Below are positions 1,209 to 5,413 of a DNA stretch of 5,601 nucleotides, in pieces. The stretch is from a virus (Duplodnaviria; Heunggongvirae; Uroviricota; Caudoviricetes): the IMG/VR virus record IMGVR_UViG_2547132271_000007, one strand, 5' to 3'. The stretch's first letter is position 1, and each line of letters begins with the position of its first letter. The notes under the pieces are model-generated. The model saw only the letters and a program-made list of their open reading frames with translations. It ran no database searches and had not been told where the DNA came from. A program made the position numbers and the translations under genes.

Positions 1209-1237
1209 TTGACAAATGTTTCTTTATATGTAATAAT
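1209..1237 (+). promoter_or_regulatory. Sigma-70/SigA-type promoter: TTGACA (1209-1214), 17-bp spacer, TG-extended -10 AATAAT (1232-1237)
   Basis: Perfect -35 hexamer, canonical spacing, TGn immediately upstream of the -10. Sits about 115 bp upstream of the first gene of the operon. Confidence 0.6.
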
Positions 1238-1350
1238 AGGTATTAGAGGGACAGAAAAACATTCTTCTCTAAATAATCAAAATCAATGCACTTTGAAGCC
1301 GTCAGGCTTGCAAGGTGTTTTATTTCTTTTAACTGAATAAGGAGTTTTTT

Positions 1351-1533
1351 ATGAAATGGTTTACACCGGAGCACGTCGTAGAGGCATTTAAAAAAGGTGA
1401 GCTAACACGCCATCAAGTAGTAATGAACCGTAATATGGCAAGGAGTCGAGGTTATCCAGAGCGAGCAGCTTGTTTCAATGAAGCACTCAAGATTATTGAT
1501 GAACTGCGTAAGAAAGAAGCAGAGAAAGAATAA
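1351..1533 (+). CDS. Hypothetical small protein, 60 aa
   Basis: AAGGAG at 1339-1344, 6 nt before the ATG. First ORF after the promoter. No family recognised. Confidence 0.6.
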   Translation: MKWFTPEHVVEAFKKGELTRHQVVMNRNMARSRGYPERAACFNEALKIIDELRKKEAEKE

Positions 1534-1556
1534 TAACAGGAGAAGGAGAAAACCAA

Positions 1557-1745
1557 ATGAATATTAATTTTGATTCTGCAACTTATAACGCGTTGTTAAA
1601 TCGCGCAAAGGCAGAAGGGAAATCAATTCCAAAACTTGTTAATGAACTACTAATTACAGTCCTTACAAAGGAGGAACTAAATGATCAAAAATATCAAAAC
1701 AATTGCCGAAGCGAAAGCCAAATGTCTAAATCAGAAAGATGGTAA
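1557..1745 (+). CDS. Ribbon-helix-helix (Arc/MetJ/CopG-like) DNA-binding protein, 62 aa
   Basis: AAGGAG at 1543-1548, 8 nt before the ATG. N-terminus INFDSATYNALLNRAKAEGKSIPKLVNELLITVL fits the strand-helix-helix pattern of this superfamily. The 3-prime 65 nt overlap the next gene in another frame, so the true C-terminus is uncertain. Confidence 0.6.
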   Translation: MNINFDSATYNALLNRAKAEGKSIPKLVNELLITVLTKEELNDQKYQNNCRSESQMSKSERW

Positions 1746-2280
1746 ACAAAAATATGTAGTTGTTGAGCAATGGTTGAAGATGTTTAAAAAATGGTATTCA
1801 CCATCTGGTAATGAATACACCGCTACACTGCCAGCCGTTGAAATCTATAGTTATATAGCTGGATTCAATGAACAAGGGCAAGAATGTTACGCTACTCAAA
1901 AAACATTAGCTAATATTGGAATGGTTAGTGATCGTCAGGTTCGCAATATTATAAATATGTTTGTTGATATGGGAGTTCTTTCTGTAGAGGCACGGGACGG
2001 TCAAACATCACTCTATAAAGCATTACCATTTACAGATGCACATATTACTCCCCCAGGAGAATCATCACTCTCTGATCTTTCTGAGGCAGAAGAAGCACAG
2101 GAACAACCTAAAGGCAATAAACAGCCTTCTTTTGATGTTCTTGATGATTGGGATGCGCCTTTGCCGTGGGAGACGGAAGAAACACCTGTTTCATCAAGTG
2201 AAAAGCTACCAAATGGTATTGAGGCATATTTTTCTAAGAATTACCCAAATGTGTATGATGACTTTGATATTCCATTTTAA
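1681..2280 (+). CDS. Winged-helix-like DNA-binding protein with an acidic C-terminal tail, 199 aa; possible replication initiator or replisome organiser
   Basis: AAGGAGG at 1668-1674, 6 nt before the ATG. Segment ATQKTLANIGMVSDRQVRNIINMFVDMGVLSV looks like a winged helix-turn-helix; the tail DDWDAPLPWETEE is acidic. The functional call is inference from this motif and the nearby iteron-like array. Confidence 0.7.
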   Translation: MIKNIKTIAEAKAKCLNQKDGKQKYVVVEQWLKMFKKWYSPSGNEYTATLPAVEIYSYIAGFNEQGQECYATQKTLANIGMVSDRQVRNIINMFVDMGVLSVEARDGQTSLYKALPFTDAHITPPGESSLSDLSEAEEAQEQPKGNKQPSFDVLDDWDAPLPWETEETPVSSSEKLPNGIEAYFSKNYPNVYDDFDIPF

Positions 2281-2291
2281 TAAGGAGGGTT

Positions 2292-2570
2292 ATGATTCAA
2301 TATTTAGTAAAAAATCAAGTAGACAGAATTCAGTGTAATGACACAGGAAAACGCATCTACGAAACACTTGCTTACCTCTATAAAGGAAAGCCAACACCGC
2401 TAAAATATAGCGATGTGTTACATCGAGCAGGTTGCTCTGAAGCTGGTTTAAAATTCTGGCTGAAACAGCTATCAAACTTCGGTGTTATTGAGATTAAAGA
2501 ATTATCTTTCTCTACATTCAATCTCAAAAGACTAGACAAAGAAATAGAATTCATCTATTCCACTCTCTAA
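2292..2570 (+). CDS. Small putative helix-turn-helix protein, 92 aa
   Basis: AAGGAGG at 2282-2288 with a short spacer. Segment YSDVLHRAGCSEAGLKFWLKQLSNFGVIEI is helix-turn-helix-like. Begins 12 nt after the upstream stop. Confidence 0.65.
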   Translation: MIQYLVKNQVDRIQCNDTGKRIYETLAYLYKGKPTPLKYSDVLHRAGCSEAGLKFWLKQLSNFGVIEIKELSFSTFNLKRLDKEIEFIYSTL

Positions 2571-2611
2571 AATCTCTCTATGTAATTAAAATATAAAAGG
2601 AAAACATTATT

Positions 2612-2731
2612 ATGATAGTAGCTATGTATTGGTTATTGTTCTTTCTCACGTTAGAAACATATTTCGGGGTGTTTTCCTTTAAAAGAAAAGGAAAATTAAA
2701 TAATGGCAAAAAGAAAAAACAACGTTGTTAA
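2612..2731 (+). CDS. Possible 39-aa hydrophobic peptide (MIVAMYWLLFFLTLETYFGVFSFKRKGKLNNGKKKKQRC); speculative
   Basis: Below the threshold of the ORF track; I translated it by hand. AAAAGG lies about 11 nt upstream. One predicted membrane-spanning segment followed by a basic tail. Overlaps the start of the 2703 ORF in another frame. Confidence 0.2.
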   Translation: MIVAMYWLLFFLTLETYFGVFSFKRKGKLNNGKKKKQRC

Positions 2732-3113
2732 GAAAATCGGGGATTCAGCTTCTCTTCTAAGTAAACCTAAATCTATTCTAAGACGTAAAGACTTTAAAGA
2801 GCTAGTTACGCTCACCAAGCAAAATAGCGCCCCTGGCGAATGGAAAACAGAGATCATAGAACATTCTCCCTCTGTGCCTTGTGGAGATGAATTTAACGCC
2901 TTACAAGAAATCTTATCTTCAACACCTGGCGTGTTCTGGAAACCTAAAAAAAGAAAAGAGTATATCGTTGACAGCTCTGATTTACGCAAATACCAGATTT
3001 TAGGATTTGAAGATTATAATCACTACGTCGGTTATCTCGCCACAAATGGCCTAAATAATTTAGTTCCTGAATTCCAAATTTTAGATAATGCAGATCACTA
3101 TGGAGACTTTTAA
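2703..3113 (+). CDS. Hypothetical protein with a basic N-terminus, 136 aa
   Basis: Weak AAAGGA about 10 nt upstream. Its stop lies 1 nt before the next start codon, which suggests translational coupling. No family recognised. Confidence 0.55.
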   Translation: MAKRKNNVVKKIGDSASLLSKPKSILRRKDFKELVTLTKQNSAPGEWKTEIIEHSPSVPCGDEFNALQEILSSTPGVFWKPKKRKEYIVDSSDLRKYQILGFEDYNHYVGYLATNGLNNLVPEFQILDNADHYGDF

Positions 3114-3114
3114 T

Positions 3115-3453
3115 ATGAACAAAAACACGTATGACACAATTTACTCACTAATTAATTATTATGAGGATGATTACCTCCTGCCTTTAAACCGCGCTGAACT
3201 TGAAGCATACAAAGAAAACACGCCAGCGGCACTAAATGAGGCGTTTAAACACTGGGATTTAGCTGTGAATGCCTTTGAGCACCTCTCTAAGCGTGTAGAG
3301 ATGCTCTGTAAGCGTGAGAACGCATATCTAACAGCGGATCAGCTATGGGAGCTATCAAACTGGATAGAAGGTATTGCATCGGACGTTCGCTATGTAGGAG
3401 ATGGACTTGTTGAACTAGCTCAACGCTTAGGCGCTACTATCACAGAAGAATAA
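3115..3453 (+). CDS. Hypothetical acidic protein, 112 aa
   Basis: GGAGA at 3101-3105, 9 nt before the ATG at 3115. The ORF track starts this frame at 3088, but that start overlaps the upstream gene and has no ribosome-binding site. Last gene before the second promoter. Confidence 0.6.
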   Translation: MNKNTYDTIYSLINYYEDDYLLPLNRAELEAYKENTPAALNEAFKHWDLAVNAFEHLSKRVEMLCKRENAYLTADQLWELSNWIEGIASDVRYVGDGLVELAQRLGATITEE

Positions 3454-3482: not shown

Positions 3483-3511
3483 TTGACATTTCATATATTG
3501 TATGTTAATAT
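3483..3511 (+). promoter_or_regulatory. Strong sigma-70/SigA-type promoter: TTGACA (3483-3488), 17-bp spacer, TG-extended -10 TAATAT (3506-3511)
   Basis: Perfect -35, canonical spacing, TGT immediately upstream of the -10. Faces the downstream capsid-like genes. Confidence 0.65.
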
Positions 3512-3641
3512 AATTATATAGGGGTGATTATTTTTCCTTTATTGGTTCGATATTAAAAATTCTTCCTGTCATTAAAGGGGAGTAAAATCTCCGCTCCCCG
3601 CTTCTCCTCCTTAAGTAAATACTGTGCCATTATACCTCTTT

Positions 3642-3671
3642 GTTATGCATACATCTTGGAGTATGCATAAC
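3642..3671. promoter_or_regulatory. Inverted repeat GTTATGCATA-N10-TATGCATAAC in the leader; each arm contains the palindrome TATGCATA
   Basis: 10-bp arms are exact reverse complements. A related GTTATGCAAC occurs at 3737-3746. Could be an operator or an RNA hairpin. Confidence 0.5.
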
Positions 3672-3700
3672 ATAGGGTAATTACATAGGTATGAGTTAAT

Positions 3701-3732
3701 AAAAGGCGGCTTTAAATGCTGCCTTTTATTTT
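3701..3732 (+). terminator. Intrinsic terminator-like hairpin inside the leader: stem GGCGGC(3705-3710)/GCTGCC(3718-3723) with one G-U pair, 7-nt loop, U-tract 3724-3732
   Basis: An A-tract (3701-3704) upstream can extend the stem. Lies about 190 nt downstream of the predicted start site and about 60 nt upstream of the first downstream gene. Confidence 0.5.
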
Positions 3733-3741
3733 GCCCGTTAT

Positions 3742-3758
3742 GCAACTTAAAAGTTGTA
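3742..3758. promoter_or_regulatory. Operator-like palindrome GCAAC-N6-GTTGTA, copy 2, immediately after the leader terminator
   Basis: Same unit as 3459-3475, 283 bp away. Confidence 0.4.
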
Positions 3759-3794
3759 TTTCTTACTTTAAACAAGGTAACAAGGTTTATATAA

Positions 3795-4007
3795 ATGTTG
3801 TTCTTAAATGATAAAGAGCAAATCATCAAGTATAAAGATGAAATGCTGAAAATTAATCCACAAATTACCGAAATGGTAGCTAAATACGCTGGGTGTTCTG
3901 TAGAGGAAGTAGAAAGATGTGTTGAAAAATATTTTTCTCCTTCTTCTCCGTCTACACCTTCCCTTAATGAATTAATCAAATTAAAAGCTAAGGAGATTAC
4001 TAAATGA
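3795..4007 (+). CDS. Hypothetical small protein, 70 aa
   Basis: Weak AAGG about 9 nt upstream. Its stop overlaps the next start codon (ATGA, 4004-4007), which suggests translational coupling. An alternative in-frame start is at 3843. Confidence 0.5.
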   Translation: MLFLNDKEQIIKYKDEMLKINPQITEMVAKYAGCSVEEVERCVEKYFSPSSPSTPSLNELIKLKAKEITK

Positions 4008-4366
4008 TTATTGATTTAGACACTCTGTTTCCAGTTCGAAAGACTTTCACAGATATTGTAAGTTATTGTACTGATCCGTTTGCCTCTGTAGAAAGCAAGG
4101 TTTTTGCTTCTCTTCCTGCTGATGTTGAGTGCGGAGACTTGATCACCAGCACGGGCGCTAAATATGAATCAGGAGATGATATTTATGTTGTTATGAGTGA
4201 ATTTGTAACGGCTGGAGAAAACAAGCCTGTAGATGTGCTACGTAGCAATGCTGGCCTTGTATGCATCAAAGCTGATGCCCTGAATGCTGTAAGTGAAGCA
4301 GCAAAAACAGCATTAATTAAAAAAGGCTTCCAGCTTGAAGGCTTTAATACGGTTTTCACTTCTTAA
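4004..4366 (+). CDS. Hypothetical protein, 120 aa; possible head decoration protein (lambda gpD-like) by position only
   Basis: AAGGAG at 3990-3995, 8 nt before the ATG. It sits directly upstream of the capsid-like gene and is about the size of lambda gpD (110 aa). I see no convincing sequence similarity from memory. Confidence 0.65.
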   Translation: MIIDLDTLFPVRKTFTDIVSYCTDPFASVESKVFASLPADVECGDLITSTGAKYESGDDIYVVMSEFVTAGENKPVDVLRSNAGLVCIKADALNAVSEAAKTALIKKGFQLEGFNTVFTS

Positions 4367-4384
4367 TAAAAGGAATAATAATAA

Positions 4385-5413
4385 ATGATTCTAGGTAATG
4401 ATTACGTTGATTTAGCTCCTCTGTTCCAGGCACACAGCACTAGAAACTATCTGCTCTCTACCCTTGATTTTACGGATTCTGTAGGGGTTACATCTCATAA
4501 AGTAGCTGTTTCCCAGCTTGTCGAAAGCAACGAATCTCTCTTTAACAAAGAGACAAGCCGTTTCTCTTCTGAACACAACGTTACTAAGCGAGAACAAGGT
4601 AAAGAATGGCTGATCGAAATCCCGTATTTTCTTCGTGAGGATGTGATCCGTCCCTCTGATGTTCAAGGCAAGCGTAAGCCTGGCACTGATTTTCAGGAAA
4701 CACTCACTGATATCTATGCTGACTATGTTGCTAAACACCACGTAGCGTATCAGCGTACAAAAGAGAGCGTATTGGCTGCTTCTTTGTTCTCTGGCAAAAC
4801 TTACACGCCTAAAACTGATGATGTTCTTATCGAGTGGAGCAAGCTGTTTAACGTGGTACCTATGAAAACCACTGTGAACGCTTCCAGCACTGACACCACG
4901 AAGATTTTTAAAGAATTTGATCAGATTGCTACTGACATTATCGAGAAAGCACAAAGCCAGGCGGCTGCTGTAGAGCGTATTGTTGTTTTCTGTAAACCTG
5001 AAGCCTTCTCTGCAATTCGATTCTCTGCGGGTATGGCAAACGCATTCCAGTATGTAAGCCCACTGGAAGAAGGGAACGTTGTGTATCAGCGTCGTGACCT
5101 GCTGCCAGGGGTGACAGCGTTCACTATTCCAGGAACTAACATCGATGTTGTTAAACTGGTAGATCCGCTACACCTTGCACATATGACCGCAGACGCTGTA
5201 GCTGTTCCGAAGTTTGCTAAAGGCTCTAATGTATATCAGAACATCTACGGGGCTGCTTCCAGCACCTTTGAACTGATTAATGCCGCTCCTGCTGAAGTGT
5301 ATAGCTATAGCTATGAATCTTCTCGTGGTGATGCTGTTAACGTGGTTACAGAGAATAGCCAGATGGTTGTAAACCACGGTGTAGGCTTCTCCGTTCAAAT
5401 CACTGTTAAATAA
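4385..5413 (+). CDS. Probable major capsid protein, 342 aa, lambda gpE-like family (tentative)
   Basis: Longest ORF in the window, rich in V/A/S/T, followed by a strong terminator. Against my recalled lambda gpE sequence (341 aa) there are three colinear local matches: SLFSGKTYTPKTDD vs AVLKGKYTMTGE; IVVFCKPEAFSAIRFS vs IIVFDPKGWALFRSF; LLPGVTAFTIPG vs FLPDNTMVLGN. Family assignment is unverified. Confidence 0.8.
   Translation: MILGNDYVDLAPLFQAHSTRNYLLSTLDFTDSVGVTSHKVAVSQLVESNESLFNKETSRFSSEHNVTKREQGKEWLIEIPYFLREDVIRPSDVQGKRKPGTDFQETLTDIYADYVAKHHVAYQRTKESVLAASLFSGKTYTPKTDDVLIEWSKLFNVVPMKTTVNASSTDTTKIFKEFDQIATDIIEKAQSQAAAVERIVVFCKPEAFSAIRFSAGMANAFQYVSPLEEGNVVYQRRDLLPGVTAFTIPGTNIDVVKLVDPLHLAHMTADAVAVPKFAKGSNVYQNIYGAASSTFELINAAPAEVYSYSYESSRGDAVNVVTENSQMVVNHGVGFSVQITVK

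Follow-up and report, generated by a model that had tools for sequence, protein, structure and literature searches.

The window analysed here, the whole stretch of 5,601 nucleotides from the IMG/VR virus record IMGVR_UViG_2547132271_000007, carries six co-oriented open reading frames (ORFs) on its plus strand, p1 to p6, which occupy positions 1351-3453 and belong to a tRNA-integrated island of 12.1-12.4 kb, not to a phage. The gene p1 (1351-1533) encodes a basic, family-specific protein of 60 amino acids (aa), and p2 (1557-1745), which is allelic, encodes a 62-aa probable ribbon-helix-helix protein predicted to bind DNA. The gene p3 (1681-2280) encodes a 199-aa protein that begins with a type-A HTH_36 winged helix, continues with an acidic linker and has a C-terminus ending in YDDFDIPF; it is proposed here to be a replication initiator. 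It is followed by p4 (2292-2570), a conserved gene for a 92-aa putative small winged-helix protein resembling ArsR and PefI, by p5 (2703-3113), the gene of a 136-aa family-specific protein with no known fold, and by p6 (3115-3453), whose 112-aa product is modelled as a three-helix bundle. A ribosome-binding site of the GGAG type can be read at the start of all six genes, and a single base lies between the stop codon of p5 and the start codon of p6, which are translationally coupled. The alternative start of p6 chosen by the ORF tool (3088) would give a protein of 121 aa, but it lacks a Shine-Dalgarno sequence, and the orthologues align from 3115.

Orthologues of p1, p2, p4, p5 and p6 are present in Klebsiella and Enterobacter islands in the same order and at the same size, with about 25-55% identity. 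Among up to 15 E. coli islands, the ratio of nonsynonymous to synonymous polymorphism (pN/pS) is 0.18 for p1, 0.14 for p4, 0.10 for p5 and 0.22 for p6, and 0.11 for the capsid gene; two non-coding control stretches read in an arbitrary frame gave 0.28-0.39 instead of about 1, so that the contrast to the genes is merely 2-4 fold. Because these controls are imperfect, the reality of the genes is argued mainly from cross-genus orthology. The six genes are real and under purifying selection, and the six-gene operon of the original prediction, which had been made from the bare sequence, is thereby borne out. Scans against Pfam, PHROGs, NCBIfam and PADLOC found no enzyme domain in any of the six proteins and no family for p1, p5 and p6, in agreement with the earlier statements that the operon has no recognisable enzyme and that its 60-, 136- and 112-aa proteins belong to no family; homology of all six to characterised housekeeping functions was also looked for and was not found.

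The protein p3 is most likely an origin-binding replication initiator and not merely a regulator. Its HTH_36 domain scores 25.6 bits against the curated Pfam cut-off of 25 (E = 1.1e-5), and its matches in PHROGs include PHROG_270, a 'replication initiation protein' (4e-7), four lambda-O-like PHROGs and DnaD-like loaders, while the APEC-type allele of p3 matches PHROG_270 at 9.6e-10. Across the islands, the N-terminal 100-120 residues of p3 are of at least five unrelated types (A-E), borne on a shared acidic C-terminal half, a pattern of evolution in which the N-terminal domain is swapped and the C-terminal half is conserved. Compared with most alleles, p3 of the window has an in-frame deletion of 44 aa (VANDNEED...HRLK) at about 2200-2215, that is, codons about 175-178. 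A different deletion within the same segment was seen in p3 of island L021.

All islands have arrays of 15-23-bp repeats, placed about 1.2-1.45 kb upstream of p1, and, after these, a stretch extremely rich in AT. In the window, three copies of the type-A iteron TAGGAARTGRKTTCC at 29-43, 64-78 and 87-101 are the proposed binding sites of p3, and the adjoining AT-rich stretch at 102-165, which contains the 13-bp tandem repeat AATACTATAATTA twice, may by analogy serve as a DNA-unwinding element. The window begins with a terminal inverted repeat of IS5 (1-27), inserted at a CTAG bordering the first iteron, and plasmid matches to the first ~47 bases are consistent with such an IS5 end; the window copy has therefore lost its connection to the other iteron families, which intact islands have further upstream. 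As originally predicted, the operon is placed between an origin region, here the iterons at 29-101, and a second ('late', structural) promoter at 3483.

The type of p3 covaries with the type of iteron among the 36 E. coli islands whose upstream sequence is complete. At least three copies of iteron F5 (GGAAATGATTTCC) were found in 7/8 islands of type A, and elsewhere in 4/13 of type B, 0/8 of type C and 0/6 of type E. Iteron F2 (GGTCAyAGTGAGCTA), at four copies or more, is present in 10 of the 13 type-B islands, in one of the six type-E islands and in none of types A, C and D. Likewise, arrays with at least five copies of iteron FC (ACAGAATTCTGTTA) occur in type C (6/8) and not elsewhere (0/28), and those with at least four copies of iteron F1 (TACCCCTATCAA) in all six type-E islands and in one of eight type-A islands, with none in types B, C and D. 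This pattern is a co-occurrence among related, linked sequences, and the binding of iterons by p3 is proposed from it: the lambda-O-like N-terminal winged helix would bind its cognate iterons (29-101), 1.25-1.32 kb upstream, beside the AT-rich unwinding region.

In Klebsiella and Enterobacter islands, the slot of p3 is filled by a 482-497-aa protein resembling superfamily 2 (SF2) helicases (DEAD 1.6e-5; PHROG_2467), and the neighbouring genes are orthologous; the slot is therefore read as an exchangeable replication module. The C-terminal tip of p3 also points to a role in replication. The motif [DE]DFD[IL]PF ends all 47 typed (A-E) alleles but two (...DSLPF in L013 and ...FGTPF in L072), and it is also found on the allele of island L010, whose C-terminal domain is otherwise non-homologous. 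The winged-helix-type alleles in other genera end in ...STIPF, ...FSLPF, ...EGIPF, ...FELPF or ...EDLPF, whereas the helicase-type proteins do not. The tail of the E. coli protein SSB, which binds single-stranded DNA, ends in ...DFDDDIPF. A published account describes DDDIPF as the conserved hexapeptide of the SSB C-terminus (SSB-Ct), by way of which SSB binds DnaG and numerous other genome-maintenance proteins (PMC5872125), and p3 ends in D-D-F-D-I-P-F, which agrees with the acidic and I-P-F tip of SSB. The likeness suggests that the tip of p3 is an SSB-tail mimic recruiting replication enzymes of the host or helper, although it is found on a predicted double-strand DNA-binding initiator and SSB is an OB-fold protein binding single-stranded DNA. 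Tethered at the origin, the tip (DDFDIPF) would bring in SSB-binding enzymes of the host or helper, for example, PriA, the chi subunit of Pol III or DnaG, and the operon would need no enzyme of its own because p3 is proposed to recruit them.

Phage-encoded copies of the DNA-binding domain of p3 provide a further line of evidence. In a collection of 50,697 phage records, just two short patches of the window are present, namely 1543-1709 and 1776-2036. The former, which represents p2, shares 99% identity with a gene of phage PaulScherrer (98% between the proteins), and the latter, which represents the p3 domain, shares 96-97% with a portion of a gene carried by muut, inny, Mt1B1_P17 and BI-EHEC. 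The phages muut and PaulScherrer, whose records were opened, are Stephanstirmvirinae of the genus Justusliebigvirus. The cassette of muut (MN850573.1 81039-82256; locus L003 2411-3628) consists of muut_153 and muut_154, and that of PaulScherrer, at the same site (locus L004 3015-3200), of the p2 copy (98%) only; because these differing cassettes share flanking genes, they are read as occupants of one early-gene hot spot. The protein muut_153, encoded just upstream of muut_154 and carried by muut and inny only, matches the 55-aa p2 allele found in APEC O1-type islands at 100% identity.

The protein muut_154 is a 332-aa chimera of three parts, a type-E p3 domain, a type-A p3 domain and a nuclease domain. 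Its residues 1-123 are identical to the start of a type-E island p3 save for D117E (BLASTP alignment), residues 125-214 share 93% identity with the window's type-A domain, and residues about 230-330 match MUG113 (1.8e-4; 22.5 vs 22.3 bits), T5orf172 (0.03) and the 'endonuclease' PHROG_681 (2e-18). Two HTH_36 domains are recognised in it (3.6e-15), and in T5-like and Vibrio phages the proteins related to its C-terminal part carry annotations as homing or GIY-YIG endonucleases. None of the 50,697 phage records contains the type-A iteron array. Since islands abound and copies in phages are rare, it is simpler to suppose that the sequences passed from the islands into the phages. A comparable protein is Odn of phage ICP1, in which a satellite initiator DNA-binding domain is placed on a T5orf172 nuclease and which cuts the satellite origin, as was shown experimentally against the RepA/ori modules of the Vibrio cholerae PLEs, elements that resemble phage-inducible chromosomal islands (PMC8263062). 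By its domain make-up, muut_154 is apparently an Odn-like, predicted anti-satellite nuclease with dual specificity. Such an architecture supports both the assignment of p3 as initiator and an encounter of phage and island, and the shared sequences suggest that Justusliebigvirus phages meet the islands and probably serve as helpers.

Among 5,426 complete E. coli genomes, 1,082 match part of the window and 186 match at least 80% of it, nearly all in the chromosome and at up to five places per genome. The island of APEC O1 adjoins tRNA-Thr, has a tyrosine integrase at its end and is bounded by 20-bp direct repeats (ACTCCTATTATCGGCACCAT) at the tRNA-Thr 3' end, which lie 12.2 kb apart and represent its attachment (att) sites; in metagenome contigs, the distance from att to att is 12.08-12.44 kb. 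Further copies among the loci fetched adjoin tRNA-Gly and tRNA-Ser genes, and the same architecture is found in Klebsiella and Enterobacter islands. Downstream of the operon, the late genes comprise a 70-aa gene, a 120-aa gene in the position of gpD, the capsid protein gene, a small gene and the genes of a 609-aa protein and a Dit-like protein; this structural module of capsid, gpD-position, tape-measure-like and Dit-like genes covers 3795-5413 of the window and extends beyond it (16089-20591 in locus L002). The capsid protein is of the lambda-E type (Phage_cap_E, 2e-15), the 609-aa protein matches a tape-measure PHROG (2e-51), and the Dit-like protein is recognised at 3e-29. No terminase, portal, protease, connector, tail tube or lysis gene was found among the island ORFs scanned. 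The IMG/VR matches are read as prophage calls, not as virion DNA, because the identifiers of these viral records resemble those of isolate genomes.

The element looks like a phage satellite, since it is a discrete, integrative element of 12 kb with a proposed replicon of its own and an incomplete set of virion genes. We therefore regard it as probable, with fair confidence, that p1-p6 make up the early operon, for replication and control, of a satellite-like integrative island of 12 kb that encodes a capsid, in which p3 acts as the initiator and the structural operon is gated in its leader. The module originally called early or middle is thus an operon of the early regulation and replication type, but it would serve a satellite-like island and not the phage that had been supposed. 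Literature searches found no description of this island or of a satellite of Justusliebigvirus, Phapecoctavirus or phi92, and the family is not described in the searchable papers on SatelliteFinder, phage-inducible chromosomal islands (PICIs), capsid-forming PICIs (cf-PICIs), PLEs and PICMIs. Some islands carry, in addition, a small resolvase-like serine recombinase gene on the opposite strand, within the non-coding region between attL and the origin (L001 10549-11088; L012 2195-2734; L029 448-987).

Several observations weigh against this reading. The HTH_36 match of p3 is marginal, and a search of PDB sequences with the p3 profile returned generic winged helices only. The covariation of p3 and iterons is imperfect, with F5 arrays also in four type-B islands and merely two F2 copies in three type-B islands, and linkage and common descent confound it: the loci are not independent, and the arrays lie just ~1.3 kb from the gene. 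The window contains no DnaA box, and a search for nut-like motifs found no motif beyond chance common to the early and late leaders. The structural genes are unlike those of the proposed helper phages: the major capsid protein (MCP) is at most ~25% identical to any phage MCP in the collection, with its best matches in Pseudomonas myoviruses. Moreover, no circular or excised form of the island was found in metagenomes, where the contigs of 12-13 kb are integrated copies with flanks and without terminal overlaps. The island copy in the window may itself be impaired, with IS5 at the first iteron and a p3 shorter by 44 residues, but the conclusions at the level of the family are independent of the state of this copy.

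Transcription of the operon would start at a near-consensus sigma-70 promoter at 1209-1237 (plus strand; TTGACA-17-AATAAT with TG, 11/12 consensus positions), pass a leader hairpin with a U-run and run through p1-p6. The early promoter is conserved in 18 E. coli islands, in which two promoter/leader alleles are linked to the p1 allele. The hairpin and U-run at 1288-1331 (plus strand), upstream of p1, resemble an attenuator or terminator (RNA fold z -2.5), and the same layout with different sequence is found in islands of Klebsiella, Enterobacter and others, among them Klebsiella L005 (7801-7826 plus TTTTTT), L008 and L027; the evidence for this terminator is weaker than that for the late leader. 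The late promoter at 3483-3511 (plus strand; TTGACA-17-TAATAT with TG, 10/12 consensus positions) is identical in six aligned E. coli islands, and L005 and L008 have equivalent consensus promoters. It is followed by a leader of 280 nt (3517-3794, plus strand) with an intrinsic terminator at 3703-3725 and then TTTTATTTT to 3733. The late leader folds with a z of -5.2 (0/200 shuffles were as stable), is more conserved among E. coli islands than the synonymous sites of the neighbouring genes, and contains a terminator that was also found by a separate terminator scan; in L005 and L008, too, the capsid genes are preceded by a promoter, a long leader and a terminator. Autoregulation of the early promoter by p2 in an allele-specific manner was considered and dropped, as the promoter/leader alleles track the p1 allele and not the p2 allele.

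The original prediction named the last two genes as candidates for a late-gene activator or an antiterminator. A late-gene activator was rejected as the main model and is unlikely, given that the promoter at 3483 is already near the sigma-70 consensus, has an extended -10 element and is identical in six islands. Antitermination is preferred to activation because such a promoter needs no activator and the leader terminator calls for read-through. The structural operon would thus have a constitutive-type promoter (3483) gated by the leader terminator, with read-through, by antitermination or attenuation, as the switch, and the read-through factor could be an island protein (p5, p6 or p1) or come from a helper phage. 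In phage lambda, a promoter-proximal terminator gates the late operon, whose promoter is of the constitutive type and is preceded by small genes, and Q, the gene of which lies immediately before PR', has the terminated 6S transcript as its target. The island could by the same token carry its own switch, p5 and/or p6 antiterminating the late leader in the manner of lambda Q. The two genes lie upstream of the 3483 promoter and are translationally coupled, the constitutive-type promoter and the 280-nt leader with its terminator keep their layout across genera despite turnover of sequence, and p5 is the most conserved early protein. However, neither p5 nor p6 resembles Q, N or an RNA- or RNA polymerase-binding protein in sequence or structure, the early operon has a leader terminator of its own, which makes an external (helper) factor at least as likely, and the two leaders have no motif in common. 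An antiterminator in general remains plausible from the conserved leader terminator and its layout in other genera, whereas p5 and p6 are tied to that role by position; we therefore hold it rather unlikely that these two proteins are the island's own switch.

In the operon as read here, p2 and p4 would be DNA-binding regulators, a ribbon-helix-helix protein and a small winged-helix protein, respectively, and p1, p5 and p6 family-specific factors. The earlier ribbon-helix-helix call for p2 is kept as plausible, although its profile scores are below threshold (FitA-like family of Pfam, E = 0.22); its other matches are PHROG_36888 (1.8e-4) and the 'transcriptional regulator' PHROG_11622 (0.0097), the other p2 allele matches the Arc-like PHROG_582 weakly (0.028), and orthologues in other genera are 44-56% identical. 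Both winged-helix calls hold, that for p4 on weak evidence: a profile of seven p4 sequences has weak matches in PDB to ArsR (6j05, E = 0.0038), PefI (0.065) and SmtB (0.09), with no Pfam match, and its orthologues in other genera are 29-40% identical. A piece of 270 bp from p4 (window 2337-2610) is ~81.5% identical to an unannotated site, outside the usual island loci, in many O157:H7 and other chromosomes, and one large plasmid record also matches it. The protein p1 occurs as two alleles, which go together with the two promoter/leader alleles; its orthologues in other genera are 34-37% identical, and its profile found nothing significant among PDB sequences. One may speculate that p1 is a regulator acting on its own leader, but simple linkage would give the same allele pattern.

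The best conserved protein of the operon is p5, which is 51-53% identical between genera, where its neighbours reach 25-40%, and its family has 38 representatives among 1.84 billion proteins. It has a basic disordered N-terminus, an alpha/beta core and an acidic end, and its AlphaFold2 (AF2) model (pLDDT 66; core about 77) has no fold match. The AF2 model of p6 is a three-helix bundle (pLDDT 91), for which a fold search gave thousands of generic helical-bundle matches in PDB and no match in BFVD at E<=0.001 (best E 0.31). Alleles of p6 in E. coli differ by heptad indels of seven residues, in which KRVEMLC is duplicated or lost, at a 21-bp direct repeat (3283-3316). The profiles of p5 and p6 found nothing significant among PDB sequences, and tblastn against the 50,697 phage records found no homologue of either.

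Early regions of known satellites contain interference genes, and proteins of PLEs and SaPIs block capsid assembly, late transcription or replication of the helper. It might be supposed that p5, p6 and perhaps p1 are likewise effectors of interference or takeover directed against the helper phage or the host and not regulators of the island. They are small, family-specific, under strong purifying selection and without homologues in phages, and the allelic heptad indels of p6 might befit an arms race. PADLOC, however, has no match to them, and p5 is unusually conserved for an arms-race protein. We consider such effectors unlikely, and the anti-defence or host-takeover functions once suggested for these genes found no support in PADLOC or in phage homologues of p5 and p6. 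The replication and control operon, with p3 as its initiator, remains the preferred reading.

This reading can be set beside known systems. Covariation of initiator domain and iterons was shown experimentally for the RepA/ori modules of PLEs (PMC8263062). Like these modules, the island has a variable N-terminal DNA-binding domain covarying with iterons, a conserved C-terminal part for which recruitment of the replisome is proposed, and an origin within a long upstream non-coding region; as in the case of ICP1, a virulent phage carries a chimera of the satellite initiator DNA-binding domain and a T5orf172-type nuclease, with cleavage predicted here from sequence. Unlike in PLEs, the initiator is of the HTH_36 and not the RepA_N type, the two being non-homologous, the integrase is a tyrosine and not a large serine recombinase, and the island encodes its own capsid protein. 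In addition, muut_154 has two captured domains in tandem (93% and ~100%), whereas Odn is 42% identical to RepA_N. As the RepA_N initiator, the large serine recombinase and the ICP1 helper that mark PLEs are not found here, the likeness is functional and architectural only.

With lambda O/ori, the island shares an O-like winged-helix initiator (proposed to bind), a short iteron array and an AT-rich region, and with lambda Q/PR'/tR' a late promoter of the constitutive type, a promoter-proximal terminator and small genes just upstream. In contrast to lambda, the iterons lie 1.3 kb upstream and not inside the initiator gene, an SSB-tail-like tip is found instead of a P-like helicase loader, and there is no Q homologue. 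Like PICIs, SaPIs and cf-PICIs, the ~12-kb island integrates site-specifically, carries structural genes and has a proposed replicon of its own and a presumed dependence on a helper. The integrase, att sites and size of ~10-15 kb typical of PICIs are present (tyrosine integrase; 20-bp repeats 12.2 kb apart); there is no divergent Stl/CI-like repressor beside the early operon and no primase/helicase (Pri-Rep) in the E. coli operon, and sister islands have the SF2 helicase-like protein. Of the full head module of cf-PICIs (MCP, portal, protease, connectors and terminase), the MCP alone is recognised: no terS, terL, portal, protease or connector gene was found, and the island has just the MCP and the gpD-position, tape-measure-like and Dit-like proteins.

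Immunity of satellite P4 works by premature transcription termination in a leader, a mechanism that the leader terminators of the island recall; the genome sizes are similar, and use of a helper is presumed for the island as well. Unlike P4, the island has no homologues of the alpha primase-helicase, sid, psu, delta or epsilon, and a counterpart of the P4 CI RNA is not in evidence, though a structured, conserved non-coding region lies at 166-620. By their defining genes, the island is not a member of the PICIs, cf-PICIs, PLEs or P4, and by analogy its operon would work like the RepA/ori module of PLEs and lambda O/ori.

The locus could instead be the decaying early region of a defective prophage, its repeats being operator or partition sites of a transcription factor p3 and not an origin, and immunity or partition regions also typically show consensus promoters, helix-turn-helix proteins and repeat arrays, the window copy has an IS5 junction and an internal p3 deletion, and truncated islands (L010) exist; but we judge this quite improbable in view of the intact att repeats and a size that is uniform at 12.1-12.4 kb, the minimal gene set that is shared across genera and under purifying selection, the occurrence at up to five places per genome and at tRNA-Thr, tRNA-Gly and tRNA-Ser, the SSB-tail tip, which would be senseless on a repressor, the helicase-like protein in the p3 slot of sister islands and the phage nuclease built upon the same DNA-binding domain.

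Other features lie in the non-coding parts of the window, of which 166-1208 has no credible ORF, with no minus-strand gene upstream of p1. The ORF-free region 166-620 is 95-100% conserved among E. coli islands, and 461-595 is conserved at 76-80% in other genera. The region is far more stably folded than shuffled sequences on either strand (z -7.3 on the plus strand and -9.5 on the minus strand) and contains an imperfect hairpin with a 24-bp stem twice, in 53-nt units at 397-448 and 520-572, with no Rfam match; when the window (at E up to 1) and the APEC O1 island were scanned against Rfam, the flanking tRNA was the only match. The region could be a DNA site that acts in cis, for example, a packaging signal, or a structured RNA comparable to the P4 CI RNA. 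A 13-bp tandem repeat, AAATAAGCCyCT, occurs twice at 1011-1035 in the window and five times in L010 (4373-4437), in non-coding sequence upstream of the early promoter. The spacer between p4 and p5 (2596-2680, 2612-2731) is conserved and holds a perfect 11-nt inverted repeat, AAAGGAAAACA and TGTTTTCCTTT, with arms 63 nt apart, and a third GGAAAACA lies at 2839-2849. The spacer also contains a 39-aa ORF, hydrophobic and then basic, for which the spacer of the sister genera is too short, and its fold is no better than that of shuffles (z -1.1).

Taken together, we tentatively suggest, as a possibility somewhat short of an even chance, a new enterobacterial satellite family that parasitises large virulent Stephanstirmvirinae (phi92-like), with an enzyme-less initiator bearing an SSB-tail mimic, and a counter-attack by phages that carry a captured ribbon-helix-helix protein and a dual-specificity Odn-like nuclease in one hot spot. 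If true, an arms race of the ICP1-PLE type would have arisen independently for a second time, here in the genetically tractable setting of E. coli, with candidate partner phages already in collections (PaulScherrer in BASEL; muut and inny from Danish wastewater), and the likely partner phages would be virulent ones under development for therapy. The satellite family would extend over E. coli, where about one-fifth of complete genomes have at least part of it, Klebsiella and Enterobacter. Its two operons gated by leader terminators would offer a compact model of antitermination control in satellites, and an origin-binding protein with an SSB-tail mimic would explain simply, and in a manner open to test, how an element of 12 kb can borrow a replisome. 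Moreover, nucleases directed at origins would then be a general anti-satellite strategy and not a peculiarity of Vibrio.

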